From an uncultured bacterium (GTDB lineage Bacteria; Patescibacteriota; Minisyncoccia; Phycocordibacterales; Phycocordibacteraceae): DNA of 64,000 bases. Position numbers and translations under genes: made by a program. Every line of letters begins with the position of its first letter. The stretch's first letter is position 1. The notes below the pieces were generated by a model that was not told the origin of the DNA, searched no databases, and was given only the letters and a program-made list of their open reading frames with translations. Location: contig CALFMK010000001.1 in assembly GCA_937879955.1 (NCBI GenBank), positions 5,461 through 69,460 on the forward strand, written 5' to 3'. This document shows, piece after piece, positions 1 through 64,000 of this stretch.

Positions 1-377
1 TTCTTCTGGAACTGCAGGCTGTTGCGGGCCGGCCACAGCGCGAAGCGGGCGATGAGGAAGCCGAAGAGGACGTTGAGGAGCACGAGGCCGAGGAACGAGT
101 ACAGGTACGCCTCGTCCTTCACGGCGTCGATGGTGTCCGGCAGGCTGCTCGTGGTGGTCGCGTTCTCTGCGAGCGCCTGGGCTATCTGCGTCGTGATGGT
201 CTCCACGGTGCGCTCCTGGGCGTAGTGCACGCCCCACACGAACACCACGATCGAGATCAGGGCGAGCACGATCTGCAGCCCGACGACATGGATCGCCGTC
301 TTCACGAACAGGTTGTACCGGTACTTATCGATTAAGTCGGTAACCCACGCCGCGGACGGTTTCGAAGAGAGGGGCAT
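1..377 (-). CDS. sensor histidine kinase, N-terminal fragment (continues beyond window start)
   Basis: Minus-strand frame is open from the ATG at 377-375 to position 1. It is absent from the ORF track because no stop lies in the window. Translation MPLSSKPSAAWVTDLIDKYRYNLFVKTAIHVVGLQIVLALISIVVFVWG...LYSFLGLVLLNVLFGFLIARFALWPARNSL shows two hydrophobic helices flanking a short loop, as in OmpR-partner kinases. It lies directly downstream of the response regulator and overlaps its 3' end. Start codon uncertain. Confidence 0.5.
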   Translation of the reverse strand, partial: MPLSSKPSAAWVTDLIDKYRYNLFVKTAIHVVGLQIVLALISIVVFVWGVHYAQERTVETITTQIAQALAENATTTSSLPDTIDAVKDEAYLYSFLGLVLLNVLFGFLIARFALWPARNSLQFQK

Positions 378-999
378 CTGCATAGGTATCGAGCTTCTTG
401 CGAAGATTCTTCATGTGTACATCAAGCACGTTCGAGAAGCCAGGGAAGTCGAAGCTCCAGACATGGTCGAGGATGCTCTCGCGCGTGAGGGCCTCGTCCG
501 GGTGGCGCATGAAGTACTCGAGGAGCGAGTACTCCTTGAGCGTGAGGGAGAGCGGCTTGCCGCCCTTGGTCACGGTCCGCGCCCCGGAGTCGAGCTCGAT
601 GTCGCGGACGGAGAGCTTCGACGGGAGGCTCTGCTCAGGACGGCGGAGCACCGCGTTGATGCGGGCCACGAGCTCCTCGAACGAGAACGGCTTCGCGAGG
701 TAGTCGTCGGCGCCGGTGTTGAGGAGCTCCACCTTGTACTCGGTCTCGTCGCGGGCCGTGAGGATGATGATCGGGGTCTTCACGCCCTCCTTCCGAGCCT
801 CGCGCGTGATGGTGGCGCCGTCGACGCCCGGGAGCATGAGGTCGAGCAGGATGAGGTCGTACTCGTCCCGGTAGAGGAGGATGCGGGTCTTCGCCTTCTC
901 GCTCTCCGCGATCCAGTCCACGGCGAAGCCCTTCGACTCGAGGCCGCGCTTCAGGCCCTCGGCGAGCTTCGCTTCGTCTTCAACGATGAGTATGCGCAT
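325..999 (-). CDS. OmpR/PhoB-family response regulator
   Basis: Receiver motifs MRILIVEDE, LILLDLMLPGVDG, ILTARD and AKPF, followed by a winged-helix output domain (LTLKEYSLLEYFMRHPDEALTRESILDHVW...VDVHMKNLRKKL...TVRGVGYRL). Confidence 0.92.
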   Translation of the reverse strand: MRILIVEDEAKLAEGLKRGLESKGFAVDWIAESEKAKTRILLYRDEYDLILLDLMLPGVDGATITREARKEGVKTPIIILTARDETEYKVELLNTGADDYLAKPFSFEELVARINAVLRRPEQSLPSKLSVRDIELDSGARTVTKGGKPLSLTLKEYSLLEYFMRHPDEALTRESILDHVWSFDFPGFSNVLDVHMKNLRKKLDTYADAPLFETVRGVGYRLNR

Positions 1000-9148: not shown

Positions 9149-9181
9149 TAACTAATATGAATCCTATAAGAAAGAGGCAAA

Positions 9182-12897: not shown

Positions 12898-14979
12898 CTA
12901 TGCGCGCTCGATAGTAGCGAGAATCTCCTCGATCTCAGCGAGCCCCGCCGGCTTCGTGAGATGGTGGTCGAACCCGGCCTTCCGGGCCTTCTGTATGTCG
13001 GATTCCTGGCCGTAGCCGGTGAGTGCGACGAGCGTCGCGGCGAACCCATCAGCGCGGAGCGCCGTCGCGACCTCGTAGCCCTCCATGTCCGGCAGGCCGA
13101 TGTCGAGCAGGATCACGTCAGGACGGAACGCGGGCGCGCGGGCGATAGCCTCCTCGCCGGTATATGCGGTTTCGGTACGGTTCCCGCGGAGCGTGAGGAG
13201 CTTCGCGAGCGCGTCGGCCGCGGCGCGGTTGTCGTCCACGACGAGGATGCGGAACCCGTCACGCGCCTTTGGCGCTGCTACGGCCCGTGCCCGCACCCCG
13301 ACGGCTCCCTCCTGCGGGAGCGGGATGCGGACGGTGAACCGGCTCCCGTGTCCGGGCCCGTCGCTCTCGGCCTCGATCGTGCCGTCGTGCATCTCCACCA
13401 GGTTCTTGGTAAGCGAGAGGCCGATGCCGAGACCTGCGTGCATCTTGCCGGGCTGCTCGATCTGGAAGAACGGTTCGAAGACGTGCGCAAGGAGCGCGGC
13501 GTCCATGCCGATGCCGGTGTCCGTCACCGTGACGACGGCCTCGGTCCCGTCCGTGCGTGCCACGAGCTCGATACGGCCTCCGGGCTCGGTGTACTTCGCC
13601 GCGTTGTTGAGGAGGTTCACGAACACCTGCTCGAGACGCACGGGATCGGCCTCGAGGCGGATCGCCTCGTCCGGCATGTCGATCGAGAGCTCGTGCTTGA
13701 GGGACGCCATGAGCGGCGCCACGGTACGCTGGCTCCTTGCGAGCACGGTCTGGAGGTCGATGTGCTCCTTCTGGAGGGAGAGCTTCTCGCGGGTGATGCG
13801 CGAGATGTCGAGCAGGTCGTCGAGGAGATGCCGCATGGTCTTCAGGTGGTCGGTCATGCCTTCGGCGAGCTCGCTCGAGCGAGCGGCATCCGGCCGCTCG
13901 AGCTTCATGATCTCGAGCGAGGACATGAGCGGGGCGAGCGGGTTGCGCAGCTCGTGCGCGAGGGTGGCGATGAAGCGGCTCTTCGCCTCGTCCTCACGGC
14001 GGATCCGCTCCACGGCGTCCTCGAGCCTGCGCACGTTGTCGCGCAGGACGTTCGCGGTGTCCTTGCGCTCCTCCGCGATGGAGACGAGCACGAGGAATAT
14101 GAGGGAGAGCACGATCACGAATATCTCGGTCTGCAGGAGGTCGTATCCGAGCGTCCCTGTACCGGACGCGAGGCTGAGGAACGCGGTGCCGCCGAGCGCG
14201 AGCGCGGCGTTCAGGAAGAGCGCGAGCGTCATGAAGCGCGGGCCGATGCGCAGCGCGATCCAGAGGAACGGGATGAGGATAAGGTATACGAGCGGCACCT
14301 GCGCGATCTCGCGGTATGGGGTCCAGTACAGGAGGAGGCCGGTCCCGACGACGGCCGCTATCGCGACCCAGGCCTCGACGAGCTCGCCCTTCGTGCGCTG
14401 GAACCTGAAGCGCGGCAGCCACTTGATGAGGAGCGGCGTCACGACGAGCATGGAGAGGATGTGCCCGATCCACCACGGGATGAAGGTACCCATGAGGCCG
14501 CGGGGCATGGCGCGCTCGGCCAGGGTGAAGGTGAGGGTTCCGAGCGCCGGGATGAGGATGGTGACGAAGAGCGCGACGAACACGAACATGAGGGTGTCGG
14601 GAGCCTTCGAGAAGGTGTTGCGGTATCCGAGCTTCCGGAGGAGCCAGGTGCCCACGCTTGCCTGTATGGCGTTCGCCGCCGCAAGCCCGAGCGCCACGAA
14701 CAGCACGCTCCCGTTCAGGAGCTGGTGCGCGAGAGCTGCCAGGAATACCGCAGGCCAGAGCGCGATGCCGCCGAGGAGGAGTCCGCCGAGCGCGATGCCG
14801 GATGCCGGCCAGATGAGGGCCGGGGCGGTCGGGACGGAGGAATAGATATGCGAGAAGACCTGGGCGCAGAACAGGTACGCGCAGAACAGCAGCGCCATGT
14901 AGAGGAGCGACCGTCCGGAATAGGGGAAGCGAGGCATAGACGGGTGGATGGCGTTCTCCCTAGGATACATTCTTTTCAT
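12898..14979 (-). CDS. hybrid sensor histidine kinase (multi-TM MASE1-like sensor, HisKA, HATPase, C-terminal receiver)
   Basis: About 300 aa of TM helices. H-box LAHELRNPLAPL. ATP-lid boxes NLLNNAAKYT, DTGIGM and GLGIGL. Receiver ILVVDDN..ILLDIGLPDMEG..LTKP. Start could be an internal Met (14970 or 14937). Confidence 0.85.
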   Translation of the reverse strand: MKRMYPRENAIHPSMPRFPYSGRSLLYMALLFCAYLFCAQVFSHIYSSVPTAPALIWPASGIALGGLLLGGIALWPAVFLAALAHQLLNGSVLFVALGLAAANAIQASVGTWLLRKLGYRNTFSKAPDTLMFVFVALFVTILIPALGTLTFTLAERAMPRGLMGTFIPWWIGHILSMLVVTPLLIKWLPRFRFQRTKGELVEAWVAIAAVVGTGLLLYWTPYREIAQVPLVYLILIPFLWIALRIGPRFMTLALFLNAALALGGTAFLSLASGTGTLGYDLLQTEIFVIVLSLIFLVLVSIAEERKDTANVLRDNVRRLEDAVERIRREDEAKSRFIATLAHELRNPLAPLMSSLEIMKLERPDAARSSELAEGMTDHLKTMRHLLDDLLDISRITREKLSLQKEHIDLQTVLARSQRTVAPLMASLKHELSIDMPDEAIRLEADPVRLEQVFVNLLNNAAKYTEPGGRIELVARTDGTEAVVTVTDTGIGMDAALLAHVFEPFFQIEQPGKMHAGLGIGLSLTKNLVEMHDGTIEAESDGPGHGSRFTVRIPLPQEGAVGVRARAVAAPKARDGFRILVVDDNRAAADALAKLLTLRGNRTETAYTGEEAIARAPAFRPDVILLDIGLPDMEGYEVATALRADGFAATLVALTGYGQESDIQKARKAGFDHHLTKPAGLAEIEEILATIERA

Positions 14980-14996: not shown

Positions 14997-15044
14997 CCCG
15001 CGCCTTGCTACGGAGCCGTGCTTCGCCGTACTATGGGCTCCACT

Positions 15045-15455
15045 ATGACAGCAAAAGGAAAGTACGTACCCGGCGAGTGGACGCTCGCCGTGAAGCGGTC
15101 GAGCGCCGGCCTCGGCCTGTTCGCGGGCGAGCGCATCCCGAAGGGCGCCTGCGTCATCGAGTATGTCGGACGCACGGTATCGAAGGAGGAGAGCGAGACG
15201 AGCAAGAGCAAGTACCTCTTCGAGATCTCGAAGAACAAGACCATCGACGGGAAGCCGAAGATAAACAAGGCGGGGTACATCAACCATGCCTGCAATCCGA
15301 ACTGCGAGACGGAGATAGCGAAAGGCCGCATCTTCGTGATGGCGATCAAGGACATAAAGCCCGGAGACGAACTCACCTACGACTACGGGAAGGAGTACTG
15401 CCTCGAGCACTGCGTCCCGTGCCGCTGCAGCGCGAAGAAGCACCTGTACGGATAG
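15045..15455 (+). CDS. SET-domain protein (putative lysine methyltransferase)
   Basis: GLGLFAGERIPKGACVIEYVG, NHACNPNC, ELTYDY and a Cys-rich tail CLEHCVPCRC. Start set to the ATG at 15045, 10 nt after TACTAT. The track start at 15018 is in the same frame. Confidence 0.8.
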   Translation: MTAKGKYVPGEWTLAVKRSSAGLGLFAGERIPKGACVIEYVGRTVSKEESETSKSKYLFEISKNKTIDGKPKINKAGYINHACNPNCETEIAKGRIFVMAIKDIKPGDELTYDYGKEYCLEHCVPCRCSAKKHLYG

Positions 15456-22897: not shown

Positions 22898-22986
22898 GGG
22901 TGGCATTGTAGCAGGCCCCGGACGCGTCCAGCCACAGATTCCATCGGTTTTGCGCACCTCGCCTCACCCGCGGTATGATGGCGCCA

Positions 22987-23997
22987 ATGTCCCTCTTCTC
23001 ACCGCGCATCGGCATCGACCTCGGCACTACCAATGTCCTCGTGTTCGTGCCTGGGAAGGGCGTGGTCCTGAACGAGCCGTCGGTCGTGGCGGTCTCCACC
23101 GAGACGAACAAGGTGGTCGCCATCGGGGTGGAGGCCAAGGCGATGGTAGGCCGCACCCCGGACTCCATCCAGGCGTACCGCCCGATGAAGGATGGCGTCA
23201 TCGCGGACTATCGCGTGACCGAGGCGATGCTCCGCTATTTCATAAAGAAGGCACTCGGCCGGAACCTCTTCAAGCCCACCGTCCTCATCTCCGTGCCTGC
23301 GGGCGTTTCCTCCACCGAGAAGCGCGCCGTGATCGAGGCTGCCGTGAAGGCGGGCGCGGCAGACGCGTACGTCGTGAAGGAGCCGATCCTCGCCGCGATC
23401 GGTGCCGGAATCCCGATCCAGGAACCGATGGGGCGCATGGTGGCTGACATCGGCGGCGGCACCATCGACGTGGCCGTGATCTCGCTCGGCGGCATCGTGG
23501 CGTCCACCTCCGTGAAGGTGGCAGGGAACAAGCTCGACCGCGCGATCATCGACCATGTGAAGAAGCAGTACAACCTCTCCATCGGCGACAAGTCGGCCGA
23601 GGACATCAAGATCCAGATCGGCTCGGCCGTCCCGGTCACCGAGGAGCTCACGATGTCGGTGAAGGGACGCGACCTCCTCTCGGGCCTCCCGCGCACCATC
23701 GAGCTCAAGACCAACGAGGTGGTGCAGGCACTGAACCGCGAGCTGCGCGACATGATGAACGCGGTGCGCAAGGTGCTGCAGGACACGCCGCCTGAGCTCG
23801 CAAGCGACATCATCGACAACGGCATCATCCTTACGGGCGGCACGAGCCAGCTCCGCCATCTCCCCGAGCTCGTGTATAGGCGCACCGGCGTGCAGGCGAA
23901 GCTCGCCGACGACGCCTACTACTGCGTCGTGCGCGGCACGGGCATCGCGCTCAAGCATCTCGATACCTATAAGAAGAGCATCATCTCGAAGCGGTAA
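22987..23997 (+). CDS. mreB: rod-shape-determining protein MreB (copy 1)
   Basis: IGIDLGTTNVLV, actin-fold phosphate and adenosine motifs (DIGGGTIDVAV, ILTGGTSQL). Start set to the ATG at 22987, 7 nt after TATGAT. In-frame ATGs also lie at 22975 and 22978. Confidence 0.9.
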   Translation: MSLFSPRIGIDLGTTNVLVFVPGKGVVLNEPSVVAVSTETNKVVAIGVEAKAMVGRTPDSIQAYRPMKDGVIADYRVTEAMLRYFIKKALGRNLFKPTVLISVPAGVSSTEKRAVIEAAVKAGAADAYVVKEPILAAIGAGIPIQEPMGRMVADIGGGTIDVAVISLGGIVASTSVKVAGNKLDRAIIDHVKKQYNLSIGDKSAEDIKIQIGSAVPVTEELTMSVKGRDLLSGLPRTIELKTNEVVQALNRELRDMMNAVRKVLQDTPPELASDIIDNGIILTGGTSQLRHLPELVYRRTGVQAKLADDAYYCVVRGTGIALKHLDTYKKSIISKR

Positions 23998-29933: not shown

Positions 29934-30995
29934 ATGGCAAAAGGAAACCGCTTCTCGAAGAGCTCGCTCTTCTCCACCGACATCGGCATCGACCTCGGCA
30001 CCGGCAATACGCTCGTGTACGTGCGCGGCCGCGGCATCGTGATATCGGAGCCGTCGGTGGTGACGCTCAACGAGAAGACCGGCCAGATGGTGGCGGTCGG
30101 GAAGGAGGCGAAGGCCATGCTCGGCAAGACGCCGCCGCACATCCGCGCGGTGCGTCCCTTGTCGCACGGCGTCATCTCCGACTTCGAGGTGACGGAGGAG
30201 CTGCTCGCGTATTTCATAAACAAGGCGCAGGGCGGACGCTCCAGGCTCTTCGGGCCAAGAGTGGTGGTGGGCGTGCCGACCGGCGTGACGAACGTCGAGT
30301 CGAGAGCGGTGCGCGACGCGGCGATGACGGCGGGCGCGCGCGAGGTGTTCATCCTCGAGGAGCCGATGGCGGGCGCGATCGGCGCGAAGCTCCCGGTCAT
30401 GGAGGCGGTGGGCACCATGGTGCTCGACATCGGCGCAGGCACTACCGACATCGCGGTCATCGCGCTCGGCGGATCGGTAGCAGGGAAGAGCTCGCAGGTC
30501 GCGGGCGACCGGTTCAACGAGAACATCATCGATTTCGTGCGCAGCGAGTTCCAGCTCGCCATCGGCGAGAAGACCGCCGAGGACACCAAGATCGCCATCG
30601 GCGCGGTGCTCCCGCTCGCGACGCCGCTCGAGAAGGCGATCCGCGGACGCGACCTCGCCACCGGCCTCCCGCGCGAGATCACCCTCAACGACTCACACAT
30701 GCGCGACGCGCTCGCGCCGTCCATGGAAGCGCTCATGGAGGCGATGAAAGAGGTCATCGAGAAGACGCCGCCCGAGCTCCTCTCGGACGTGCTCGAGCGC
30801 GGCGTCACCGTGTTCGGCGGCGGCGCCTTGCTCCGCGGCCTGCCTGAGCTCCTCGCGAAGATGCTCGGCGTGCCGGTGCACGTGGCCTCTGATCCTCTCA
30901 CGGCCGTGGTGCGTGGCACCGGCGTCGTGACGGAGGACCCGCGCCCGTGGAATGACGCATTCATGCATGAAGAAGCGATTCTCCCGAAGGCATAA
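29934..30995 (+). CDS. mreB: rod-shape-determining protein MreB (copy 2)
   Basis: IGIDLGTGNTLV, DIGAGTTDIAV and VFGGGALLRGL. Starts 4 nt after the proS stop and is followed by mreC, mreD and mrdA. Confidence 0.9.
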   Translation: MAKGNRFSKSSLFSTDIGIDLGTGNTLVYVRGRGIVISEPSVVTLNEKTGQMVAVGKEAKAMLGKTPPHIRAVRPLSHGVISDFEVTEELLAYFINKAQGGRSRLFGPRVVVGVPTGVTNVESRAVRDAAMTAGAREVFILEEPMAGAIGAKLPVMEAVGTMVLDIGAGTTDIAVIALGGSVAGKSSQVAGDRFNENIIDFVRSEFQLAIGEKTAEDTKIAIGAVLPLATPLEKAIRGRDLATGLPREITLNDSHMRDALAPSMEALMEAMKEVIEKTPPELLSDVLERGVTVFGGGALLRGLPELLAKMLGVPVHVASDPLTAVVRGTGVVTEDPRPWNDAFMHEEAILPKA

Positions 30996-40409: not shown

Positions 40410-40817
40410 ATGCACGATTATTTCGAGATCGTCGTCCCGCGCCAGACGCAGGATCCGATCGCATATATCGAGTTAGCGGAATGGGGAACGGCCACGGTCC
40501 TCTGTGCCCGAAAACGGGTCCGCATCACGTTCGAGATGACCTTCCCGTCGCAGGAGCACATGGACTCGTTCCTCGAAGCGCGTCGCACGCACCGATACGC
40601 GCAGTATGGCGGCCGCATCACGGCGCTCACGCCGACGCACCTGAGCGAGCAAATCCCGTCATCTGAGAGCGAAGATGGGGACAGTCTGGTACTCGGGATA
40701 CGGCAGCTGGCCGAGGTGTTCGGCGTAACGGAGAAGGAGTTCAAGGCGGCGAGGACGCTCGCGGAGTCCGCCATCCTCTCGAAGTACCGTTTCGGAAGAA
40801 GGAGAGCGTCTACCTAA
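40410..40817 (+). CDS. hypothetical protein with possible C-terminal HTH
   Basis: TTGATT-N16-TATAGT promoter and GAAGGAGGAG SD. The C-terminal LGIRQLAEVFGVTEKEFKAAR is HTH-like. Confidence 0.55.
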   Translation: MHDYFEIVVPRQTQDPIAYIELAEWGTATVLCARKRVRITFEMTFPSQEHMDSFLEARRTHRYAQYGGRITALTPTHLSEQIPSSESEDGDSLVLGIRQLAEVFGVTEKEFKAARTLAESAILSKYRFGRRRAST

Positions 40818-40858: not shown

Positions 40859-41686
40859 TCAGCGGTATTCCCGGATCCAGCATCCCATGCCGAGGATCTG
40901 CCGGTAGGTGCCGATCCTCGTCCTCCGGATGGAGAGCGCCATGCCTCGGGTGCCGAGCGCGCGGCCGATGCGCTCGGCAAGCGAGCGCATGTAGGTTCCT
41001 GACGCGCAGGTCACGCGGAGCCGCATGCTAGCGAAGCTGCGATCAGCCATGTCGTCGAACGTGTCCTTCCATGCGGCGCGTATCTCGTCCTGCCTGAAGT
41101 CCCGTCCGAGCGCTTTCGACTCATCGTCGGTGCGTGGTGCCAGATCGAGCATCGCCATGACGCGCTTCTCGAGGTCCTTCGCATCGATCTTCAGGATGTC
41201 GAGATCCGCTATGCGATAGATGGTCTCGGTGTGCGTCGGCATATCGACGGCATCGAGCGTGCCCTCGAGCGCGTGCAGGAAGAGCGGCCTGCCGCCTACG
41301 GTCTTCGACGAGTAGGGCGGGTACGGGATATCCTTCGCGCCCGTTTCCGCCTTGAGCGCCTTCCGGACCGTCCTGCCATCGGGATGGGACGCAGTTCCTG
41401 CGTAGGACGGCATGCCGAGCACGTCCCCCGTGTCAGTCGCCAGATCGAGCAGGACCTCAACCTCGTATTCCTTGTCGAGCCCGAGATATGCCTCCTTGCG
41501 CTTGCACTCGTCGCCGAGCAGCACGAGGAGCGCTCCTTCGGCCATCGGATCGAGCCTGCCGGCGTAGGTGGCCGGGAGGTGCGCGTATCGGGGATTTTCC
41601 CGCTTCCAGTCCTGAAGCGCTTGGAGCGGCGTCTGGCCGATTTTCTTATGGAGTACGATCGGGCCGGTCGGCTGGATGCTCTGCAT
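40859..41686 (-). CDS. truB: tRNA pseudouridine(55) synthase
   Basis: HKKIGQTPLQAL and catalytic YAGRLDPMAEGALLVLLG. Start trimmed to MQSIQPTG at 41686. Confidence 0.88.
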   Translation of the reverse strand: MQSIQPTGPIVLHKKIGQTPLQALQDWKRENPRYAHLPATYAGRLDPMAEGALLVLLGDECKRKEAYLGLDKEYEVEVLLDLATDTGDVLGMPSYAGTASHPDGRTVRKALKAETGAKDIPYPPYSSKTVGGRPLFLHALEGTLDAVDMPTHTETIYRIADLDILKIDAKDLEKRVMAMLDLAPRTDDESKALGRDFRQDEIRAAWKDTFDDMADRSFASMRLRVTCASGTYMRSLAERIGRALGTRGMALSIRRTRIGTYRQILGMGCWIREYR

Positions 41687-41758
41687 GGTGGGTTGATGAT
41701 ACCGGCAACAGCCAGGAAAAGAAAAAGGCCCCGACATGATGTCGGGGCCAATGCTGCC

Positions 41759-42766
41759 TCATATAGGGGCGGAAAGTGCGTAGTCTCCGGTCCTCGTGGT
41801 GCGAAGCGCGCTGAGGCCGTGGCTGTGATAGAGCGCCCTCCATTCGGCATACTCCGCCGCGCTCAGTCCCGGATACTTTGCCAGGACGTAGGGAAGCGGG
41901 ATGCCGCCCTTCTCGACGAGCAGGACGATCACCGCCTTGCGGCGTATGACCCATCGCGTGTCCTGCGCTTCGGACGGGAGGTCCTCGGCGCAGATCTTCA
42001 TTCCCAGGGGGCCCGTGATCGTCTTCTTCGGGTCGAAGCAGACCGTCGGGTTCGCGCTCGGATCGAGCCTGAGCTCGCCGAAGTAGTAGCCGCGGCCCCA
42101 GACGGTCCTGAGCGGAGGGTTACCCGGGAAGAACGCCCCGAGAGCCTTCCGCATCCTGCACGCATGCACGTCGATTATCTTCGGATCGACATGCGTGCCT
42201 TCCTCGTGCCTCGCATCCAGCAGCATCTGCCGCGTATGGATGATCCCGGACTTCGAGATGAGGGTCGTGAGCAGGCGGGCCTCGTCAGGGGTGATGCGCG
42301 CGCGCTGGCCCCCGATGAAGACCTCGTCGAGCCCGTTGATGACGATCGGAACGCCTTCGTGCACGGACTCGAGCTTGGTCGCGACGGATTGCAGCTCGGC
42401 TCCGTCTTCAAGCGCGAGCATGTAGCCCCTCCTGGGATGCGTGCTGATGACCTGCCTTGCGGCGGGGTGGCACGCGGCGAGCCGCATGCGGATATGGTGG
42501 ATATGGGTGTCGATCACCTTATCGAGCGGAGGATGCTCCTTGTTGCCGTCGATGACGCGCTTGAGGCTCGCCTTCGACTGCAGATGGCCACGCCGATCCA
42601 TCATGTAGAGGAAGAGCTTCTGCTCCGAAGGCGTGAACTTGGCGGAGATCTCGTTTACTGAGACCTGGCCGCTCGAGGCGATCTTGAACACCAGCTCTCC
42701 GTACGTAAGCTGGATAGGGTCTCGCTGGGGAGCCGCGTGGGTTCCCGTACGTTCGACGACGCTCAT
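41759..42766 (-). CDS. receiverless regulator with two tandem OmpR/PhoB-type winged-helix domains and a C-terminal DUF1153-like HTH
   Basis: Domain 1: FTPSEQKLFLYMMDRRGHLQSKASLKRVI...VIDTHIHHIRMRL...ISTHPRRGYML. Domain 2: ITPDEARLLTTLISKSGIIHTRQMLLDA...IIDVHACRMRKAL...LRTVWGRGYYF. Tail: RWVIRRKAVIVLLVEKGGIPLPYVLAKYPGLSAAEYAEWRALYHSHGLSALRTTR. Start set to the ATG at 42766 with an AGGAG SD; the track start is 42820. Confidence 0.75.
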   Translation of the reverse strand: MSVVERTGTHAAPQRDPIQLTYGELVFKIASSGQVSVNEISAKFTPSEQKLFLYMMDRRGHLQSKASLKRVIDGNKEHPPLDKVIDTHIHHIRMRLAACHPAARQVISTHPRRGYMLALEDGAELQSVATKLESVHEGVPIVINGLDEVFIGGQRARITPDEARLLTTLISKSGIIHTRQMLLDARHEEGTHVDPKIIDVHACRMRKALGAFFPGNPPLRTVWGRGYYFGELRLDPSANPTVCFDPKKTITGPLGMKICAEDLPSEAQDTRWVIRRKAVIVLLVEKGGIPLPYVLAKYPGLSAAEYAEWRALYHSHGLSALRTTRTGDYALSAPI

Positions 42767-42854
42767 GTACTTGCTCCTAGATACCTTGGTTTCAACGAAT
42801 CCAGAGCCAGTAAATGACAAGAAGGAGGCCGTGTCAATAAATAGGACAATGGAA

Positions 42855-42883
42855 AGAGCCGCCCTTCATGGAAGGGCGGCTCT
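42855..42883 (-). terminator. 13-bp hairpin after the CtrA-like copy 1 gene
   Basis: AGAGCCGCCCTTC-ATG-GAAGGGCGGCTCT. Confidence 0.55.
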
Positions 42884-42912
42884 GCTTGAAGCACGCACTG
42901 CTGATACTGCTC

Positions 42913-43683
42913 TCAGGCCATCGGCGCCGGACTCGGGGCGCCGGAGCCGTTCGTGAAGGCCGGTCTCGCGGCCTCGGCGATCGGAAGATCTTCTGCCATC
43001 ACGCGCTCGTTCGGGTCGCGCAGCACGTAGCCGCGGCCCCAGACGGTCTCGATGTGGTGCCTGCCGCTGTTACCGGAAGCGAGCTTCCTGCGCAGCTTGC
43101 AGACGAACACGTCCACGATCTTGAGTTCCGGCTCGTCCATGCCGCCGTACAGGTGGTTCAGGAACATCTCCTTGGTGAGGGTGGTGCCCTTGCGCAAGGA
43201 GAGGAGCTCCAGTATCTGGTACTCCTTGCCGGTCAGGTGCACGTGCTTCCCGCCGATCTCGACGGTCTTCGCGTCGAGGTTCACGACGATCTCGCCGGTC
43301 TTGATGACCGACTGGGCATGACCCCGCGAGCGCCGCACGATCGCGTGGATGCGCGCGATCATCTCGTCCTTGTGGAACGGCTTGGTCATGTAGTCGTCGG
43401 CGCCGCCCGCGAAGGTCTTCACCTTCATGTCGATCTCGGCGGATCGCGCCAGGATCATGATCGGCGTGTTGACCTTCGCGACCCTGATGGTGCGAAGCAC
43501 GTCGATCGCTGACATGTCGAGCAGGTCGAGACTGAGTACGATCATGTCGTAGTCATATATCTTTGCCAGATCGACGCCCTCCTCGCCCAGGTCGGTCACG
43601 TAGACGTTGAAGCCTTCCGACTTCAGCATCAGCTCGATCGTCTGGGCGGTAGCGCTGTCGTCTTCGATCAGGAGAATACGCAC
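42913..43683 (-). CDS. CtrA-like response regulator paralog with degenerate receiver (Ser at the phospho-acceptor position) and a C-terminal Pro/Ala-rich extension
   Basis: GTG start with a [47 protein letters not shown]... The expected [11 protein letters not shown] reads [12 protein letters not shown], and the conserved T/S reads A ([10 protein letters not shown]). The output domain [52 protein letters not shown]...[11 protein letters not shown] is near-identical to copy 2. Confidence 0.85.
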
Positions 43684-43736
43684 GCTTAGCTCTCCTCTGT
43701 GTCTGTTTGATTATCGGGAACGCATGTCTGGGATTG

Positions 43737-43764
43737 ATGATAGTGATTATCCGGGCATTGTCAA
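43737..43764 (-). promoter_or_regulatory. sigma70-type promoter of CtrA-like copy 1 (TTGACA-N16-TATCAT)
   Basis: -35 at 43764-43759 and -10 at 43742-43737 on the minus strand. Paralogous in sequence to the promoter at 44597-44624. Confidence 0.6.
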
Positions 43765-43800
43765 AAGTAGCGAATGCTCCTGTCCCTCAGGTAAGAAATT

Positions 43801-43826
43801 GGCCGCCCTTCGTGAGAAGGACGGCC
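43801..43826 (-). terminator. hairpin after the canonical ctrA-like gene
   Basis: GGCCGTCCTTC-TCAC-GAAGGGCGGCC on the minus strand, followed by AATTTCTT. Confidence 0.5.
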
Positions 43827-43851
43827 AGGTATCTTCGGATGGGTGATGCTA

Positions 43852-44547
43852 CTACGCCGCGGATACCATCTCGTTCTCGTCGCGCAGCACGTAGCCGCGG
43901 CCCCAGACGGTATCGATGTGATGCTTGCCGCCGTTGCCCGAGCCGAGCTTCTTGCGAAGCTTGCAGATAAAGACGTCCACGATCTTGATCTCGGGAACAT
44001 CGATGCCGCCGTACAGGTGATTCAAGAACATCTCCTTGGAAAGGGCGGTGCCCTTGCGTAGCGACAGGAGCTCGAGCATCTGGTACTCCTTGCCGGTCAG
44101 GTGCACGCGCGTGCCGCCGACCTCGACGGTCTTCATGTCGAGGTTCACGACGATCTCGCCGGTCTTGATGACCGAATGAACGAGACCCTTCGAGCGCCGT
44201 ACGATCGCATAGATGCGAGCCACGAGCTCGTCCTTATGGAACGGCTTGGTCATGTAGTCGTCGGCGCCGAGGTTCAGCGCCTTCACCTTCGTCTCGATGC
44301 GGGTGTCGCCGGTCGAGATCATGACGAGCGTCTCGATCTTCTCGGCGCGGAGCGTCCGGAGAACGTCGAGGCCGTACATGTCAGGCAGGTTAAGGTCGAG
44401 CAGGATCAGGTCGTAGTCGTAGGACCTCGCGAGATCGAGACCCTCCTCGCCCAGGTCGGTCGTCTGGACGCTGAAACCTTCCGACATCAGCATCAGCTCC
44501 ACCGTTTGGGCAGTGGCGCCGTCATCTTCGATCTGGAGAACGCGCAT
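43852..44547 (-). CDS. ctrA: CtrA-type OmpR-family response regulator (canonical receiver)
   Basis: [67 protein letters not shown]...[28 protein letters not shown]...[32 protein letters not shown]...[11 protein letters not shown], ending in ..SAA. It reads along its whole length like alphaproteobacterial CtrA as I remember it. Track ORF trimmed to the ATG at 44547 with an AGGAGG SD. Confidence 0.85.
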
Positions 44548-44596
44548 TATGAAATCCTCCTGTTTCCGTTGTCTGGATGGAACGTGTCTGATTTTG

Positions 44597-44624
44597 ATAC
44601 TACGACTACTCCATGGATTGTCAA
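44597..44624 (-). promoter_or_regulatory. sigma70-type promoter of the canonical ctrA-like gene (TTGACA-N16-TAGTAT)
   Basis: -35 at 44624-44619 and -10 at 44602-44597 on the minus strand. Confidence 0.6.
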
Positions 44625-44647
44625 ACGAGCGCACGTGAGGAATAGGG

Positions 44648-44673
44648 AAAGGCGGCCATGCGTGGCCGCCTTT
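44648..44673 (-). terminator. hairpin terminator after the 44675-44974 ORF
   Basis: AAAGGCGGCC-ACGCAT-GGCCGCCTTT. Confidence 0.6.
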
Positions 44674-44674
44674 G

Positions 44675-44974
44675 CTAGGGAGGTGGGAAGAGCGGCAGCT
44701 GTCGTGCATCCTGCGCCGCTCGCGCTTCGGCGCGCTCACGCTTCTTGCTGTTTCTCGAACGCGTCGCGCCCGCTTTCTTGCCGTACCGCTGACGGAGTCT
44801 CGCGACGAGGCCTTCGGGCGTATCGGCATCGGGCCAGCAGGTGCTGTTCAGGAACTCGTTCGCCTTTTGTACGAGCTCCTTATTCGTGAATCGGTTAAGG
44901 TCCTTCGGGCCGTGCCGCCTCCGGAAGCGCAGGTTCCGCTCGAATGCGTCGAGACGCTCTTCAGGGGACAGCAT
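44675..44974 (-). CDS. hypothetical basic small protein ending in QLPLFPPP
   Basis: 99 aa with GC-rich third positions. Overlaps the upstream ORF by 14 nt. A terminator follows directly. Confidence 0.5.
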
Positions 44975-45176
44975 GCCGTCTCCTTTTCGGGGCGCGTATG
45001 ATGCCGCGATTCCGGAGTTCGGCGAGGACTTCCGCCACGCGTCTCCTTATATCGGGAGCATGGCGGATATTCTTCCCTTCGATTGCCTTGATCGCCGCGA
45101 GCGGCCACCCGACGCTCTTGTCGGAACGCTGCTTCACGCGGATAGTCGCCTCGGTAAGCTCTGCAATGCTTAACAT
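44961..45176 (-). CDS. hypothetical small protein
   Basis: 71 aa. TTGACA-N18-TATAGT promoter and GAGAGGTG SD upstream. Confidence 0.5.
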   Translation of the reverse strand: MLSIAELTEATIRVKQRSDKSVGWPLAAIKAIEGKNIRHAPDIRRRVAEVLAELRNRGIIRAPKRRRHAVP

Positions 45177-45250
45177 CTGACACCTCTCAAAGATCCAGAT
45201 ATCGTGCTGGAAAAACTATACCGAACGGAGAAAGGGCATGTCAAACCTCT

Positions 45251-45706
45251 CTAGGAAAGGAGGGAATCGATCACCGCCTTCACGGCAGCGCCGTCCGCGC
45301 GTCCCTTAATCTCCTGCATGACGGCGCCCGTGAACTTGCCGGCGTCCTTCTTCTCGGAGATCCCGAGCTCTGCCATCTTCGCCTTCACCACGGCCTCGAT
45401 CTCCTCGGTGCTCATCTGCGCAGGGAGGAACGACTCGATCACGGCGAGCTCCTCCTTCTCGGGCGCGGCGAGCTCGTCACGCCCTGCGGCCGTGAACTGC
45501 TCGATGGAGTCCTTGCGCTGGTTCGCTGCGCGCTTCACAACCGCGAGCGCCTCATCGTCCGTGAGGAACTCGTCAGGCTTGCGCTTCTTCGCGACGACCT
45601 CGTTGGTCATCATGGTAGCGAGCGAACGGAGGGTGCGGAGGCGGATTTCGTCCTTTGCGCGCAGCGCATCAGGGATGCCGGCCTTTATGGTCTGATGTAG
45701 GGTCAT
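45251..45706 (-). CDS. yqeY: GatB/YqeY domain protein
   Basis: LRAKDEIRLRTLRSL...AANQRKDSIEQFTAAGRDELAAPEKEELAVIESFLP...MSTEEIEAVVKA is the typical YqeY pattern. Confidence 0.85.
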   Translation of the reverse strand: MTLHQTIKAGIPDALRAKDEIRLRTLRSLATMMTNEVVAKKRKPDEFLTDDEALAVVKRAANQRKDSIEQFTAAGRDELAAPEKEELAVIESFLPAQMSTEEIEAVVKAKMAELGISEKKDAGKFTGAVMQEIKGRADGAAVKAVIDSLLS

Positions 45707-52097: not shown

Positions 52098-53468
52098 CTA
52101 GAATTCGTCAGCGAGCTCGCCGTAGCCGGTCTTGTCCATCGGCATGAAGCTCGTGCGCTTCTCGTCGAAGTAGAGCTCCACCGAGCCTGTCGGGCCGTTA
52201 CGGTGCTTCTCGATGAGGATCTCGGCGATGTTCGGGCGGTCGCTGTCCTTGTTTATCTTGTCCTCGCGATGGATGAACATAACCACGTCCGCGTCCTGCT
52301 CGATCGATCCCGAGTCGCGGAGGTCGGAGAGGCGGGGCTTGCCGCCGCGCTGCTCCACGGCGCGCGAGAGCTGCGAGAGCGCGATGACAGGCACCTCGAT
52401 CTCGCGGGCGAGCTGCTTCAGGGAGCGGGAGATCTCCGTGACCTGCTGCACCATGGAATCCGACGCCTTCGTGTTGGTCGGCGCCATGAGCTGGAGGTAG
52501 TCCACGACGATGAGGCCGATGCCGCGCTCGCGCTTCAGGCGGCGCGCCACGGCGCGCATGGAAAGGATGTTCTGGGCCGGCTTGTCGTCGATGTAGATCG
52601 GCGCCTTCGAGAGGGTCTCGAGCGCGTCGCGGATCTTCGCGAAGTCGTCCTCGCTGCTGATGGCGCCCGTGCGCATCTTCCAGGAATTCACGAAGGACTC
52701 CGCGGAGAGCATGCGGTCCACGAGCTGCTCCGAGCTCATCTCGAGCGAGAAGATGCCCACCGGCGTGTCGTGCCGCACGGCGACGTTGCGCGCGATGTCG
52801 AGCGCGAACGACGTCTTACCCATGGACGGACGGGCGGCGAGGATGATGAGGTCGGACTTATGGAGTCCGGACATGAGGTTGTCGAGGTCCGGGAAGCCGG
52901 TCGGCACGCCCCGGACGGCGCCCTTGTTCTTCGAGAGCTGCTCGATGCGGTCCCAGGCGTCGTCCACCTTGTCCTTGATGGCTACGAACTTGTGAACGGC
53001 CGACGAGTTGCCGATGGCATAGATCGCTTTCTCGGCCGCGTCGAGCGCTACCGCCGTGTCCACGGAATCGTCATAGGCGGACTCGGTGATCTCGCTCGCG
53101 GTCTCGATGAGGGAGCGCATGATGTGCTTCCGGACCACGAGCTCCGCGTAGTGGTTGAAGTTGCCCGGAGTAGGCGAGGAGCCCGCGAGCTCGGCGAGGT
53201 ACGCGCGTCCGCCGGCGCGCTCGAGCAGCCCCTTCGCGTTCAGGCGCTCGCCCAAGGAGAGCATGTCGATCGGCTCGCCGCGCTCGACGAGCTCGCGCAT
53301 GGTGTCGAAGATGTGGCGGTGCTTGTCCGCGTAGAAGGACTCCGGACGGATGAGGTCCGAGACGTCGTGGATGGCGTCAGGCTTGAGCAGGAGCGAGCCC
53401 AGGAGCGCGCGTTCAGACTCGAGGCTCTGCGGAGGTACGCGGTGGGTGGGGTCGGTAGGGGTGGCCAT
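52098..53468 (-). CDS. dnaB: replicative DNA helicase DnaB
   Basis: PPQSLESERALLGSLLL, Walker A ARPSMGKTSF and the RecA-like core ...LIVVDYLQLM... Confidence 0.93.
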   Translation of the reverse strand: MATPTDPTHRVPPQSLESERALLGSLLLKPDAIHDVSDLIRPESFYADKHRHIFDTMRELVERGEPIDMLSLGERLNAKGLLERAGGRAYLAELAGSSPTPGNFNHYAELVVRKHIMRSLIETASEITESAYDDSVDTAVALDAAEKAIYAIGNSSAVHKFVAIKDKVDDAWDRIEQLSKNKGAVRGVPTGFPDLDNLMSGLHKSDLIILAARPSMGKTSFALDIARNVAVRHDTPVGIFSLEMSSEQLVDRMLSAESFVNSWKMRTGAISSEDDFAKIRDALETLSKAPIYIDDKPAQNILSMRAVARRLKRERGIGLIVVDYLQLMAPTNTKASDSMVQQVTEISRSLKQLAREIEVPVIALSQLSRAVEQRGGKPRLSDLRDSGSIEQDADVVMFIHREDKINKDSDRPNIAEILIEKHRNGPTGSVELYFDEKRTSFMPMDKTGYGELADEF

Positions 53469-61886: not shown

Positions 61887-62006
61887 ATGGCACGCCGAGC
61901 AAAGAAACATTCCAAGGGACCGGGGCTCGAGGTCTACGCGTTCTGGACCGGGTTCGCGAGCACTATCATCAGCCTCCTGCACGTGCTCATCGTGGCGAGC
62001 AAGTAG
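61887..62006 (+). CDS. possible 39-aa tail-anchored small protein
   Basis: MARRAKKHSKGPGLEVYAFWTGFASTIISLLHVLIVASK. Shares the (L/V)YAF.TG..ST.ISL...(L/V)I.A.K pattern with the previous ORF. Confidence 0.35.
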   Translation: MARRAKKHSKGPGLEVYAFWTGFASTIISLLHVLIVASK

Positions 62007-62010
62007 CGCC

Positions 62011-62130
62011 ATGGCAGAGAATAAGCCTGCACCATCGTTCCGTGACCCGAAGCGCGGCATGAGCGCGTTCTCGAGCAAGGGCGTGAAGAAGCCTGTACGC
62101 GCGTCGTATTTCGGAAAGAAGGCGCGATAG
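62011..62130 (+). CDS. possible 39-aa basic small protein
   Basis: MAENKPAPSFRDPKRGMSAFSSKGVKKPVRASYFGKKAR. Followed 8 nt later by a strong terminator. Confidence 0.3.
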   Translation: MAENKPAPSFRDPKRGMSAFSSKGVKKPVRASYFGKKAR

Positions 62131-62138
62131 GGAAGGGA

Positions 62139-62166
62139 AAAGCCGGAGTAGGGATGCTCCGGCTTT
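62139..62166 (+). terminator. intrinsic terminator closing the LOG / tiny-ORF transcription unit
   Basis: AAAGCCGGAG-TAGGGATG-CTCCGGCTTT followed by T. Confidence 0.65.
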
Positions 62167-62182
62167 TACGTAGGTGGATGCG

Positions 62183-62368
62183 TCATCGGGTGCGGCCGCT
62201 GTAGGTGAGCACGCCGGCGATTATGATCGCGACGGTGACAGTCCGTCCGGCGATCTGTACGACAGGGTCCGGATGGAGATTCGCCGCGAGCGAGCAGAGC
62301 AGCATCACGAGAGCGACGGTGTACAGAATGATCGAGATACCCCTACTTTCAGGACTATGACGCGACAT
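62183..62368 (-). CDS. small membrane protein, hypothetical
   Basis: 61 aa with two hydrophobic helices (ISIILYTVALVMLLCSLAA, VTVAIIIAGVLTY). Confidence 0.4.
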   Translation of the reverse strand: MSRHSPESRGISIILYTVALVMLLCSLAANLHPDPVVQIAGRTVTVAIIIAGVLTYSGRTR

Positions 62369-62554
62369 GGCACGGACCTTTCCTAAAGAGCGATACCGAG
62401 CTCTTCCGCTAGTATGCGCTCCGCCGGGGATTTGTTAAGCAGAAAGGCACTCGACTTTATCTTTTCTTTATCTCTCGTACATACACTGAGCCGGGTAGTT
62501 CTTTCATCCTGCAAGGTCGCCCGTAGCGACTGCGCATGAATACCCGCATAGGGG

Positions 62555-62586
62555 AGAGCGAACCGTCCGTCAGGGCGGTTCGCTCT
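62555..62586 (+). terminator. 13-bp hairpin in the 62.4-62.6 kb ORF-free region
   Basis: AGAGCGAACCGTC-CGTCAG-GGCGGTTCGCTCT followed by TT. Confidence 0.45.
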
Positions 62587-62648
62587 TTAGTGGTGTAATA
62601 TTTTAGCCCTAAACACGGTACGCGCACGGTGCTATAGTCGAGGTATCT

Positions 62649-63014
62649 ATGCCTTGGCCACGAGTGGGGGACTGGTTGGAGAGGATCAGTAAATCGAACG
62701 CGCTCTATCCGCTCCTCATAGCGCTATGCCTCTCCGTCGCGTTCGCCGGTACGGTCATAGCATTCGTACCGAACGTTCTCATCCAGGTCATCGTCTGTAT
62801 ACCAGTGCTGATGATCGTATTCCAGATCGTCCGGAGCTTCGAGTACTTCTCCAAGAACAACCCGGACATGCTCCGGACCGAGACGCATGTGATCCAGCAG
62901 CGCGTCCTCGAGATGATGGGGGACGAGTCCGGCGTCGTGCACGCGACTGCGGCCGACCTGGTAGCCATAACGAATCCTGCGAATACCCAGGATAGAATCG
63001 AAAACCATGGCTAA
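62649..63014 (+). CDS. membrane protein, hypothetical
   Basis: 121 aa with two TM helices (LYPLLIALCLSVAFAGTVIAFV, IQVIVCIPVLMIVFQIV). TATAGT box upstream. Confidence 0.5.
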   Translation: MPWPRVGDWLERISKSNALYPLLIALCLSVAFAGTVIAFVPNVLIQVIVCIPVLMIVFQIVRSFEYFSKNNPDMLRTETHVIQQRVLEMMGDESGVVHATAADLVAITNPANTQDRIENHG

Positions 63015-63294
63015 CATCTATCTTATCGCCGTAAAGAATGATGATTCCTTCAATGTTAAGGAATTCCATAAATTTGTTAAGGAAAAACTCTATCCTGAGC
63101 ATGTGGGCGGTTGGTGGCATTACGTTTCTGGACCAACCTATCTCGTTAAGTCGGAAACACTTGATGCTAAGGGAATATCCGAAATCATCACCCAGTTCAC
63201 TGGCAAGCAGAGTCATCTTGTTACCAAGATCGATCTAGAAGATATCGAAGGAATGTTGCCGGCTCGCGCATGGGACTGGCTCGGACTCTACTAA
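63007..63294 (+). CDS. hypothetical protein (low-GC island)
   Basis: 95 aa. Overlaps the previous gene by 8 nt. AT-rich codon usage. Confidence 0.5.
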   Translation: MANIYLIAVKNDDSFNVKEFHKFVKEKLYPEHVGGWWHYVSGPTYLVKSETLDAKGISEIITQFTGKQSHLVTKIDLEDIEGMLPARAWDWLGLY

Positions 63295-63512
63295 TGGAGC
63301 ACATCACACTTCAAGAGTATGAAGATACTGATGGAACGAGGATGGAGCTCGGTATCCAGTATGACGAAGCTACCTACCAGTTCATCGTTTCCGGAACGCC
63401 AATTAATGGCAATGGGGCGTATGAGGCAGGGAAGACGCCCATTTTCGCATCCTTCCCGACCCTCGAAGAAGCAAGGATGTTCGTAGAAAAGAGTTTCACT
63501 AAGATCTCCTAG
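63294..63512 (+). CDS. hypothetical protein (low-GC island)
   Basis: TAATG stop/start overlap with the previous gene. MEHITLQEYEDTDG... (72 aa). The track start at 63270 is in the same frame. Confidence 0.45.
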   Translation: MEHITLQEYEDTDGTRMELGIQYDEATYQFIVSGTPINGNGAYEAGKTPIFASFPTLEEARMFVEKSFTKIS

Positions 63513-63571
63513 GAATCTTCGGTTTATTTTTTCTCCAGGATTCCTTTATCCGGGGCTGGTAGGGTTCGGAT

Positions 63572-64000
63572 ATGGCAATGGTAGAAGAAAATCTGATACT
63601 TTCCCTCTTGAAGAAAGAGTTTCCGAAGGCGCCCGAACAGGTATTGAGACAATGGCTTGCTCCAGCTGTTAAGAAGGACGGTTGGCCACCGACCGGACTT
63701 CATTGGATCGGTGTATTGGGGAAAAGGGATCTGGATTTCTGGAAAAAGAAGGAATGGTCCCTTAAGGACGTTAACCTCGAAGAAGCTTCCTGGGATTACG
63801 ATACTAGGTACGCGGCAGAAAAGGTGCTCGAAGGGTTTGTTGCATCTCAAGAATCTGAAGTCCTCTTCTCTGATTCTCATGAGAAGCAGAAGGTCATACG
63901 AGCACTTAAGCACCTTTCAGTCGAAGGAAGCTTCTTCGAGCCGATAACCGCATTTCTCGTAGAAAACGAATCTGGTGGCTACTCGCTCGTAGACGGATTC
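63572..64000 (+). CDS. hypothetical protein, N-terminal fragment (runs off window end); possibly ParB/Srx-like
   Basis: Open frame from the ATG at 63572 to the window end (143 codons), so it is absent from the track. It ends ...GGYSLVDGF, reminiscent of the ..LIDG(H/F)HR motif of ParB-like nuclease domains, but the motif is cut by the window edge. Confidence 0.4.
   Translation, partial: MAMVEENLILSLLKKEFPKAPEQVLRQWLAPAVKKDGWPPTGLHWIGVLGKRDLDFWKKKEWSLKDVNLEEASWDYDTRYAAEKVLEGFVASQESEVLFSDSHEKQKVIRALKHLSVEGSFFEPITAFLVENESGGYSLVDGF

Follow-up and report, generated by a model that had tools for sequence, protein, structure and literature searches.

How does a gene for CtrA, to our knowledge a textbook lineage-specific master regulator of the Alphaproteobacteria only, come to stand in the tiny genome of a bacterium of the Candidate Phyla Radiation (CPR)? 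The question is raised by ctrA-A, a gene for a 231-aa response regulator of the CtrA family located at 43852..44547 on the minus strand of a 64,000-nt stretch of contig CALFMK010000001.1 (the whole of this stretch is called the window throughout). On sequence evidence, ctrA-A was judged to be a genuine CtrA-family regulator within a horizontally acquired module of a Paceibacterota (CPR) genome. Comparison with related contigs indicates that a Caulobacter-like ctrA reached an ancestor from which two or more Paceibacterota lineages descend, that it occupies a fixed position between yqeY and truB, and that the copy conserved across these lineages (ctrA-B in the window, a single copy in the contig L099) lost its phospho-acceptor and kept its DNA-binding domain (DBD) under purifying selection. 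The best reading of the data would be an old horizontal capture, rewired to a largely phosphorylation-independent regulator system. Identity and origin taken together are regarded as highly probable, and with the statements on the module added the whole is still probable; the proposed mechanism, taken by itself, is tentative and rather doubtful.

The open reading frame (ORF) reported in an earlier, preliminary description of the window was recovered as 231 aa on the minus strand, with an ATG start codon 8 nt after AGGAGG. The protein ends in VSAA, so the Ala-Ala terminus claimed there is present; in Caulobacter this terminus is required for ClpXP proteolysis of CtrA. All five CtrA motif strings quoted in the same description were found, and the architecture was that of Pfam PF00072 (receiver, REC) followed by PF00486 (OmpR-type winged helix-turn-helix, wHTH). 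Against the NCBIfam CtrA equivalog NF045991 (response regulator transcription factor CtrA, curated cutoff 350 bits) ctrA-A scored 360.8 bits, with PmrA as the next family at 157 bits. Its alignment to Caulobacter vibrioides CtrA (P0009) was gapless over all 231 residues at 77% identity, and the top PDB match was 4qpj, the Brucella CtrA receiver. In a search of 5.8 billion proteins, the top matches were all CtrA, and only the ctrA-A protein itself exceeded 78% identity. Identity to CtrA is far above that to other OmpR-family regulators, and the proposal of a full-length CtrA, as opposed to a generic OmpR/PhoB regulator, holds. The phospho-acceptor pocket is whole in the alignment (D8, D9, D51, T79, K101).

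The host around this gene was also correctly described as not looking alphaproteobacterial. Relatives of the window DnaB (52098..53468) were found at 77-99% identity, and all the named ones were Candidatus Paceibacterota, Parcubacteria, Minisyncoccia or Kaiserbacteria. Gene content included class I ribonucleotide reductase, thymidine kinase, def-fmt, murA, two mreB, mreC, PBP2, ftsI and murF, together with frr, rseP, a short prolyl-tRNA synthetase, greA, dnaB, cysS, recR, L9, L21, yqeY, radC and rmuC, and gene order was common to the window and two Paceibacterota contigs (L083 and L085) across ~20 kb. DnaB relatives, gene content and gene order together place the context in the CPR (Patescibacteria), and the alphaproteobacterial host expected of a CtrA was not what was found.

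In L083 and L085, whose DnaB is 87-88% identical to that of the window, the order was dnaB-recR-...-L21-rmuC-ATPase-(radC)-yqeY-two small genes-truB-tRNA-Glu-murF-ftsI, with no response regulator. Their tblastx homology to the window ended at 45242 and restarted at 41659, which delimits a non-syntenic, lineage-specific block of 3.6 kb (41660..45241) between yqeY (45251..45706) and truB (40859..41737). The block holds two small ORFs, ctrA-A, a second CtrA gene (ctrA-B) and a gene in which a SciP-like domain follows two wHTH domains (the fusion gene). ctrA-A is one member of a three- to four-gene module; the second CtrA gene 168 bp downstream and the SciP-domain gene beyond it were both absent from the preliminary description. 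As for mobile-element signatures at the module, no notable flanking direct or inverted repeats and no integrase were found. Small genes at the same site in the sister genomes were considered as SciP remnants and rejected (no Pfam match, no similarity to the module).

ctrA-B (42913..43683, minus strand as ctrA-A, GTG start) encodes a 256-aa CtrA paralog that scored 379.9 bits on NF045991; its identity to C. vibrioides CtrA is 86% and to ctrA-A 72%. Calling ctrA-A a CtrA look-alike was right, but in the window it is ctrA-B, not ctrA-A, that is closest to Caulobacter CtrA; ctrA-A has diverged most, differing from C. vibrioides CtrA at 53 positions, 31 of these in the receiver. Six near-invariant receiver residues are replaced in ctrA-B (D51S, N53D, P55L, G59A, S79A, G80R). 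Its changes cluster in the receiver active site, and the dimerisation and DNA-binding parts are retained. The DBD is almost unchanged from that of Caulobacter CtrA, and helix alpha-1 of ctrA-B is identical to that of Caulobacter CtrA; the recognition helix is near-identical to Caulobacter's in the alignment of both ctrA-A and ctrA-B. The Ala-Ala end is missing from ctrA-B, which carries a 25-aa C-terminal extension ending in PMA instead.

The same arrangement was met in L099, which was found through P0364, a full-length relative of the fusion protein in the HMMER search. L099 is an independent assembly from a different run (GC ~0.53) with the Paceibacterota synteny rmuC-ATPase-yqeY-...-truB, and a 231-aa CtrA followed by a fusion gene stands at the same locus. 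This CtrA scored 389.9 bits on NF045991, was 87% identical to C. vibrioides CtrA and 84% to ctrA-B, keeps Ala-Ala (VMAA) and has a recognition helix identical to Caulobacter's; its receiver carries D51N, N53D, S79D and G80A. Of the three Paceibacterota copies, only ctrA-A keeps D8, D9, D51, T79 and K101 all intact. The canonical Asp is missing in ctrA-B and in L099 CtrA, and Asp53 is newly present in both, where it could in principle act as a substitute phospho-acceptor. Codon 51 reads GAC in ctrA-A, AAT in L099 CtrA and AGT in ctrA-B; as AAT and AGT differ by one step (Asn to Ser), Asp51 was probably lost before ctrA-B and L099 CtrA split. L099 and the window share 76% identity in RmuC, 76% in YqeY and 53% in the ATPase, vs 72-79% for the ATPase of L083 and L085, which makes L099 the more distant.

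L099 also bears on whether a Caulobacter-like fragment was mis-joined into a CPR contig by assembly or binning. Such an artefact would fit the restriction of CtrA otherwise to Alphaproteobacteria, a source that is apparently an assembled genome or a metagenome-assembled genome, and a codon usage of ctrA-A and ctrA-B that is atypical of the host. It is nevertheless very unlikely, because both flanks of the module in the window are syntenic with Paceibacterota contigs and an independent assembly has CtrA and the fusion at the same locus. No alphaproteobacterial protein among the 5.8 billion was >78% identical to ctrA-A, and the best for ctrA-B was 86%; an Asp-less receiver and a wHTH-wHTH-SciP fusion are not alphaproteobacterial features, and the promoters fit the consensus TTGACA/TAnnnT type.

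Where the genes came from was addressed with neighbour-joining trees, a tree having been proposed in the preliminary description. Over ~224 columns, ctrA-B and L099 CtrA were sisters (97/100 bootstraps) and fell within the genus Caulobacter or beside it, in Caulobacteraceae (100/100); both were thus in the alphaproteobacterial CtrA clade and formed no independent deep clade. Homologs are not common in the phylum either: the nearest sister contigs lack the genes, and the one other Paceibacterota CtrA found, that of L099, nests in Caulobacteraceae. Native CPR regulators converging on a CtrA-like sequence, or an ancient vertical family shared with Alphaproteobacteria, would draw on the universality of OmpR/PhoB regulators, and a generic one is indeed present in the window (325..999). 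This regulator served as an internal control and scored 168.6 bits on the CtrA model, vs 361-390 for ctrA-A, ctrA-B and L099 CtrA; with the nesting of ctrA-B and L099 CtrA inside Caulobacteraceae, the lack of the genes in the sisters and the atypical codon usage, a native origin is so improbable that it can practically be set aside.

The rate of synonymous substitution (dS) between ctrA-B and L099 CtrA was 0.89, with a nonsynonymous to synonymous ratio (dN/dS) of 0.13, and dS from ctrA-B to any sampled Caulobacteraceae ctrA was at least 0.5, these dS values being affected by strong codon bias. Among Caulobacteraceae ctrA orthologs dN/dS was ~0.07, vs 0.13-0.36 for the CPR copies. Codon usage was expressed as a log-likelihood ratio per codon, host vs Caulobacteraceae. 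Host genes averaged +0.10 ± 0.06 (those of at least 200 aa ranged from +0.06 to +0.16) and Caulobacteraceae genes used as donor proxies −0.10 ± 0.05; ctrA-A (+0.004) and ctrA-B (−0.028) were intermediate, and the fusion gene (+0.077) was host-like. A codon style and GC content matching the host had been claimed for ctrA-A: the codon part was not borne out, and the GC match is non-discriminating, since host and donor are both GC-rich. Taken together, dS, intermediate codon usage and dN/dS point to an old transfer that was partly ameliorated and then held under purifying selection.

For ctrA-A itself, the two halves of the protein gave different answers. ctrA-A and ctrA-B were grouped in 68/100 bootstraps in the DBD tree and in 0/100 in the receiver tree, where ctrA-B and L099 CtrA were grouped in 96/100. 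Derived states common to ctrA-A and ctrA-B are confined to the DBD (V190, G204, N205), nucleotide identity between the two genes drops from 87% in the DBD to 74% in the receiver, and third-position identity rises sharply at about codon 110-120. This mosaic fits gene conversion between the tandem copies: the DNA-binding half of ctrA-A looks homogenised with ctrA-B, and the receiver half has a separate, faster history and would be either an older duplicate lost in L099 or a second import. A stretch of 22 nt, GTAGCCGCGGCCCCAGACGGTC (TVWGRGY when translated on the minus strand), was also noted at 42086-42107, 43027-43048 and 43891-43912; it is identical in the second wHTH of the fusion and in ctrA-B, and 95% identical in ctrA-A, although the remainder of this wHTH shares only 37% of its residues with ctrA-B. 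A short tract of gene conversion could explain the identity, as could codon bias acting on a motif that does not vary.

The third gene of the module (41759..42766, minus strand) was characterised with Pfam, AlphaFold (AF2) and Foldseek as a 335-aa protein with an OmpR-type wHTH, a second wHTH and a SciP-like DUF1153 domain. The second wHTH derives from the CtrA DBD and is 37% identical to that of ctrA-B. PF06627 (DUF1153) matched residues 265-347 of a 353-aa ORF at 63.7 bits (gathering cutoff 23.5); the domain makes up the C-terminal ~90 residues, the C-terminal third of the protein, is 40% identical to the Agrobacterium SciP ortholog over the whole SciP length, and conserves the SciP core motif RWVIRRKA...W....HGL..LRTTR. 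The AF2 model, with the family alignment as input, had a mean predicted local distance difference test score (pLDDT) of 87.4, and Foldseek matched it to OmpR/PhoB effector domains with a target TM (template modelling) score of ~0.8. ctrA-linked DUF1153 proteins of Agrobacterium and Seohaeicola scored 142 and 129.5 bits on PF06627, and this family next to ctrA is SciP, an inhibitor of CtrA. Bound to CtrA, SciP hampers the recruitment of RNA polymerase, and T170A renders Caulobacter CtrA resistant to it (PMC4083442); two substitutions of ctrA-A, T168A and T170S, fall in the segment of Caulobacter CtrA that is tied to SciP sensitivity.

An HMMER search with the fusion protein returned ~12 full-length relatives at 25-32% identity and many shorter wHTH-SciP proteins; among the top 148 matches, the family amounted to ~15 long and ~60 mid-length cluster representatives (~75). 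Its members share the signature YPDLS and have so far come from metagenomes and two Paceibacterota contigs. A metagenome scan with the fusion protein as query gave no match, a pattern scan of viral contigs for the family gave 9 matches, all false, and a literature search for DUF1153 returned nothing; as far as could be found, the wHTH-SciP fusion family has no published description. Among the fetched loci, sciP lay within ~2 kb of ctrA in Hyphomicrobiales and directly adjoined it in Rhodobacterales; in Caulobacterales no sciP was found close to ctrA. Two further products came up in the same searches. P0246 (L088 1268-2194) joins a complete CtrA-like regulator (REC and wHTH) to a SciP domain and has as neighbours an rve integrase, a patatin, a SAVED-domain protein and an SNF2 helicase, a setting like that of a mobile or defence island. 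P0248 (L087 10001-11089) is a 362-aa product in which sciP and ctrA were called as one, in a Gram-negative, alphaproteobacteria-like context (bamA-ompH-fabZ-lpxA-lpxI-lpxB), and probably results from the gene caller joining two neighbouring genes.

Are these genes still in use? Near-consensus sigma-70-type promoter-like sites on the minus strand were identified for ctrA-A (TTGACA-16-TAGTAT, 44597..44624) and ctrA-B (TTGACA-16-TATCAT, 43737..43764), with the -35 region conserved between the two. A terminator-like hairpin lies 3' of ctrA-A (43800..43827, minus strand) and a perfect 13-bp one 3' of ctrA-B (42855..42883, minus strand). The sequence thus gives each gene of the module its own consensus-like sigma-70 promoter and a putative hairpin terminator. 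The alternative that the genes are decaying passengers, acquired by chance and without function, with the loss of Asp51 in ctrA-B as the start of pseudogenisation, has in its favour the loss of six near-invariant receiver residues, a window with no CtrA boxes or pathway partners, closest sisters that do without the module, and dN/dS values (0.13-0.36) above the ~0.07 of Caulobacteraceae orthologs. All ORFs are intact, however, each with its promoter and terminator, and ctrA-B and L099 CtrA have kept dN/dS at 0.13 and identity at 84% despite a dS of ~0.9; this identity exceeds that of host RmuC, YqeY and the ATPase (76%, 76% and 53%) across the same split. The receiver changes are moreover concentrated in the active site with the dimerisation and DNA-binding parts kept, and the fusion partner gene comes from a large, diverse family. 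Decay was accordingly considered improbable, if less so than an assembly error.

What the module might do is more tentative. The recipient probably lacks the CckA-ChpT phosphorelay, and under the reading of an old capture the module would have been rewired to work largely without phosphorylation. ctrA-B would bind CtrA-type sites constitutively. Unphosphorylated CtrA activates gafA expression in Rhodobacter capsulatus, in the regulation of its gene transfer agent (GTA) (PMC6363796), and since CtrA is active there without phosphorylation, function of ctrA-B without its Asp is plausible. The SciP-domain protein, held on DNA by its wHTH domains, would bind CtrA and block recruitment of RNA polymerase as Caulobacter SciP does. 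ctrA-A would be the signal-responsive and probably ClpXP-degradable member, and may heterodimerise or compete with ctrA-B. One kinase was noted that could matter here: a hybrid histidine kinase (12898-14979, minus strand; MASE1 sensor, HisKA, HATPase and C-terminal receiver) with host-like codon usage is the only phosphorelay-type kinase in the window, where no Hpt protein was seen. As a candidate CckA it was rejected (MASE1 sensor, host-like codons, a score below the cutoff of every NCBIfam kinase model); that it is the phosphodonor of ctrA-A is conceivable.

CPR bacteria are typically episymbionts, and the targets of the module might lie outside the cell that encodes it. A CPR epibiont or parasite of a Caulobacter-like host would then use CtrA and SciP look-alikes taken from that host to interfere with its cell cycle or to synchronise with it. 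A CtrA that cannot be phosphorylated could, once inside the host, sit on CtrA boxes and tie up ChpT; alternatively, the module could sense cues coming from the host, and the symbiont would divide when the host does. The specifically Caulobacter-like donor agrees with this, as do the identical helix alpha-1 and near-identical recognition helix of ctrA-B after long residence in a CPR lineage, a protein conservation above that of host housekeeping genes, the lack of targets found in the CPR window, and the known exploitation of CtrA by phages of Alphaproteobacteria (PMC9437464). Yet neither ctrA-A nor ctrA-B has a signal peptide or a recognisable secretion signal, no secretion system was seen in the window, and no ecological evidence connects the organism with Caulobacteraceae. 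The promoters and the modulator gene fit plain regulation inside the cell just as well, and the high conservation is possibly just intrinsic constraint on CtrA. Host-directed mimicry is hence unlikely, though the least unlikely of the alternatives weighed here.

Several observations weigh against the reading of an old capture followed by rewiring. The trees that place the donor are neighbour-joining trees on ~224 columns, not maximum likelihood. In the full-length tree ctrA-A sits on a long branch, with ctrA-B in only 23/100 bootstraps, and it may have arisen by an old duplication, through a second transfer or by reversion. dN/dS between ctrA-A and ctrA-B is 0.36, and 0.42 in the receiver; the elevation could reflect relaxed constraint on ctrA-A. 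The closest sister genomes (L083, L085) lack the module, and this patchy distribution requires that the module was ancestral and repeatedly lost or that it moved between members of the phylum. No homologs of CckA, ChpT, DivK, CcrM or GcrA were found in the 64-kb window, the part covered of a contig of at least 591 kb, and DivL, CpdR and RcdA were likewise not found there. CtrA binds TTAA-N7-TTAA boxes at the origin and in the promoters of its targets, its own gene among them. The preliminary description had seen no TTAA-N7-TTAA box by eye, and a count agreed: 0 exact sites in the window (0.03 expected) and 0 with one mismatch (1.97 expected). Given so low an expectation at 63% GC, the missing boxes say little either way. 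The half-site TTAACCAT occurs once in the window, inside a gene (0.2 expected). In L099, one-mismatch boxes numbered 5 vs 1.6 expected, a weak excess that was reached by 6/200 shuffles; one of the five falls in the -35/-10 spacer of the fusion gene promoter, and as regulatory targets these CtrA-box-like sites are suggestive only.

The search for other carriers of the module gave little. Sequences scoring above Caulobacter CtrA (P0002-P0006) were rejected as close relatives, being assembly chimeras of ordinary CtrA with internal duplications, and a metagenome scan with the degenerate ctrA-A/B-specific motif KIVDVF[IV]CKLR[KR]KL[GA]SGN gave no match. Ten IMG/VR contigs classed as viral (L089-L098) carry CtrA-like genes 51-77% identical to ctrA-B; their source may be a prophage, host DNA flanking a GTA, or a phage that carries ctrA itself. 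None of these genes is closer to the CPR copies than Caulobacter CtrA is, and at no more than 77% identity to ctrA-B they make no viral vector evident.

Around the CtrA genes, two small overlapping lineage-specific ORFs on the minus strand (71 aa, 44961..45176; 99 aa, 44675..44974) are putatively coding and have their own promoter-like site (45244..45215) and a hairpin. A 135-aa hypothetical gene at 40410..40817 on the plus strand co-occurs with the module: its homolog lies beside the fusion gene in L099 (8220..8624; 28% identity, E = 1e-10), and no homolog was found in the module-less sister contigs and no family match; the AF2 model of the protein was poor (pLDDT 63.9). L099 also has a major facilitator superfamily transporter gene (4903-6171) between yqeY/hyp133 and the CtrA gene. 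Nothing equivalent stands in the window or in L083/L085, and the cargo at this locus thus differs by lineage.

Elsewhere in the window, a low-GC island at ~6000-10000 (GC 0.47 vs 0.63) holds a gene for a 797-aa protein (5864-8257, plus strand) that combines a right-handed beta-helix with a bacterial Ig domain and carries a peptidoglycan-binding domain at its C-terminus. It may be an enzyme of foreign origin that acts at the surface or on the cell wall, and several small low-GC ORFs with no family matches come after it. A second low-GC stretch (0.515) at 62000-64000, with four small ORFs lacking Pfam matches, may be a further foreign island extending past the window end. Beside the hybrid kinase lie a secreted-looking GH18 glycosyl hydrolase (10331-11578, plus strand) and a VanY/LdcB-like D-Ala-D-Ala carboxypeptidase (11993-12874, minus strand); both are active on cell walls and might target either a host or the cell itself. 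A 145-aa SET-domain protein (15018-15455, plus strand) matched Pfam SET at 2.3e-24 and, weakly, the model of the Legionella effector AnkI/LegAS4; SET-domain methyltransferases are unusual in bacteria and often effectors. Two mreB paralogs (22975-23997 and 29934-30995, both plus strand) stand within 7 kb, with mreC and PBP2 after the second, and the mreB/mreC/PBP2 set is a full rod-shape system in a CPR genome. The generic OmpR-family regulator (325-999, minus strand) has RppA/CopR/PhoB-like proteins as its best match; the ORF after it is truncated at the start of the window (3-383, minus strand).

A literature search for CtrA or SciP together with CPR, Patescibacteria or Parcubacteria returned incidental co-mentions only and no paper linking them. 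Here CtrA stands at ortholog-level similarity in CPR bacteria, at one site, in two divergent lineages and under purifying selection; that it was kept in this way means that a complex regulator can be transplanted and retained across phyla. The locus also offers a natural rewiring experiment, with a conserved copy that has no phosphorylation site and an inhibitor, SciP, fused to a CtrA DBD. The hosts and lifestyles of most Paceibacterota are obscure, and a Caulobacter-like donor of a retained module is a testable clue to physical association. If the episymbiont reading were true, the donor signature would indicate, for the first time from sequence, which hosts a Paceibacterota lineage uses; if the module is a domesticated regulator of a few CPR genes, it would still be an instructive transfer of a regulator and its modulator together.

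Several known systems come close to the module. ctrA-A has in common with CtrA of C. vibrioides the REC and OmpR-type wHTH architecture and the length of 231 aa; the host of the latter is alphaproteobacterial, whereas here the host is a CPR bacterium, the genes are tandem paralogs, and Asp51 and Ser79 are lost in ctrA-B and L099 CtrA. The P1 and P2 promoters of Caulobacter ctrA carry CtrA boxes, unlike the promoters of ctrA-A and ctrA-B. HP1043 of Helicobacter and ChxR of Chlamydia are atypical Asp-less OmpR/PhoB regulators, phosphorylation-independent and constitutively active orphans; ctrA-B and L099 CtrA resemble them in combining an Asp-less REC with a conserved DBD, a functional analogy, as neither HP1043 nor ChxR is a CtrA relative. 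CtrA of R. capsulatus cycles between states under CckA-ChpT, whereas in ctrA-B the non-phosphorylatable state is fixed by mutation. SciP of Caulobacter (CC_0903) is free-standing and ~90 aa long, whereas the domain in the window, which likewise matches PF06627, sits behind two OmpR-type wHTH domains in a family with the YPDLS signature; at 335 aa and with two wHTH, the fusion protein is not a small stand-alone SciP. Its nearest parallels in design are P0246 and P0247, metagenomic REC-wHTH-SciP proteins 29-32% identical to it, in which CtrA-like and SciP domains are joined as in the window fusion but a receiver takes the place of the first wHTH.

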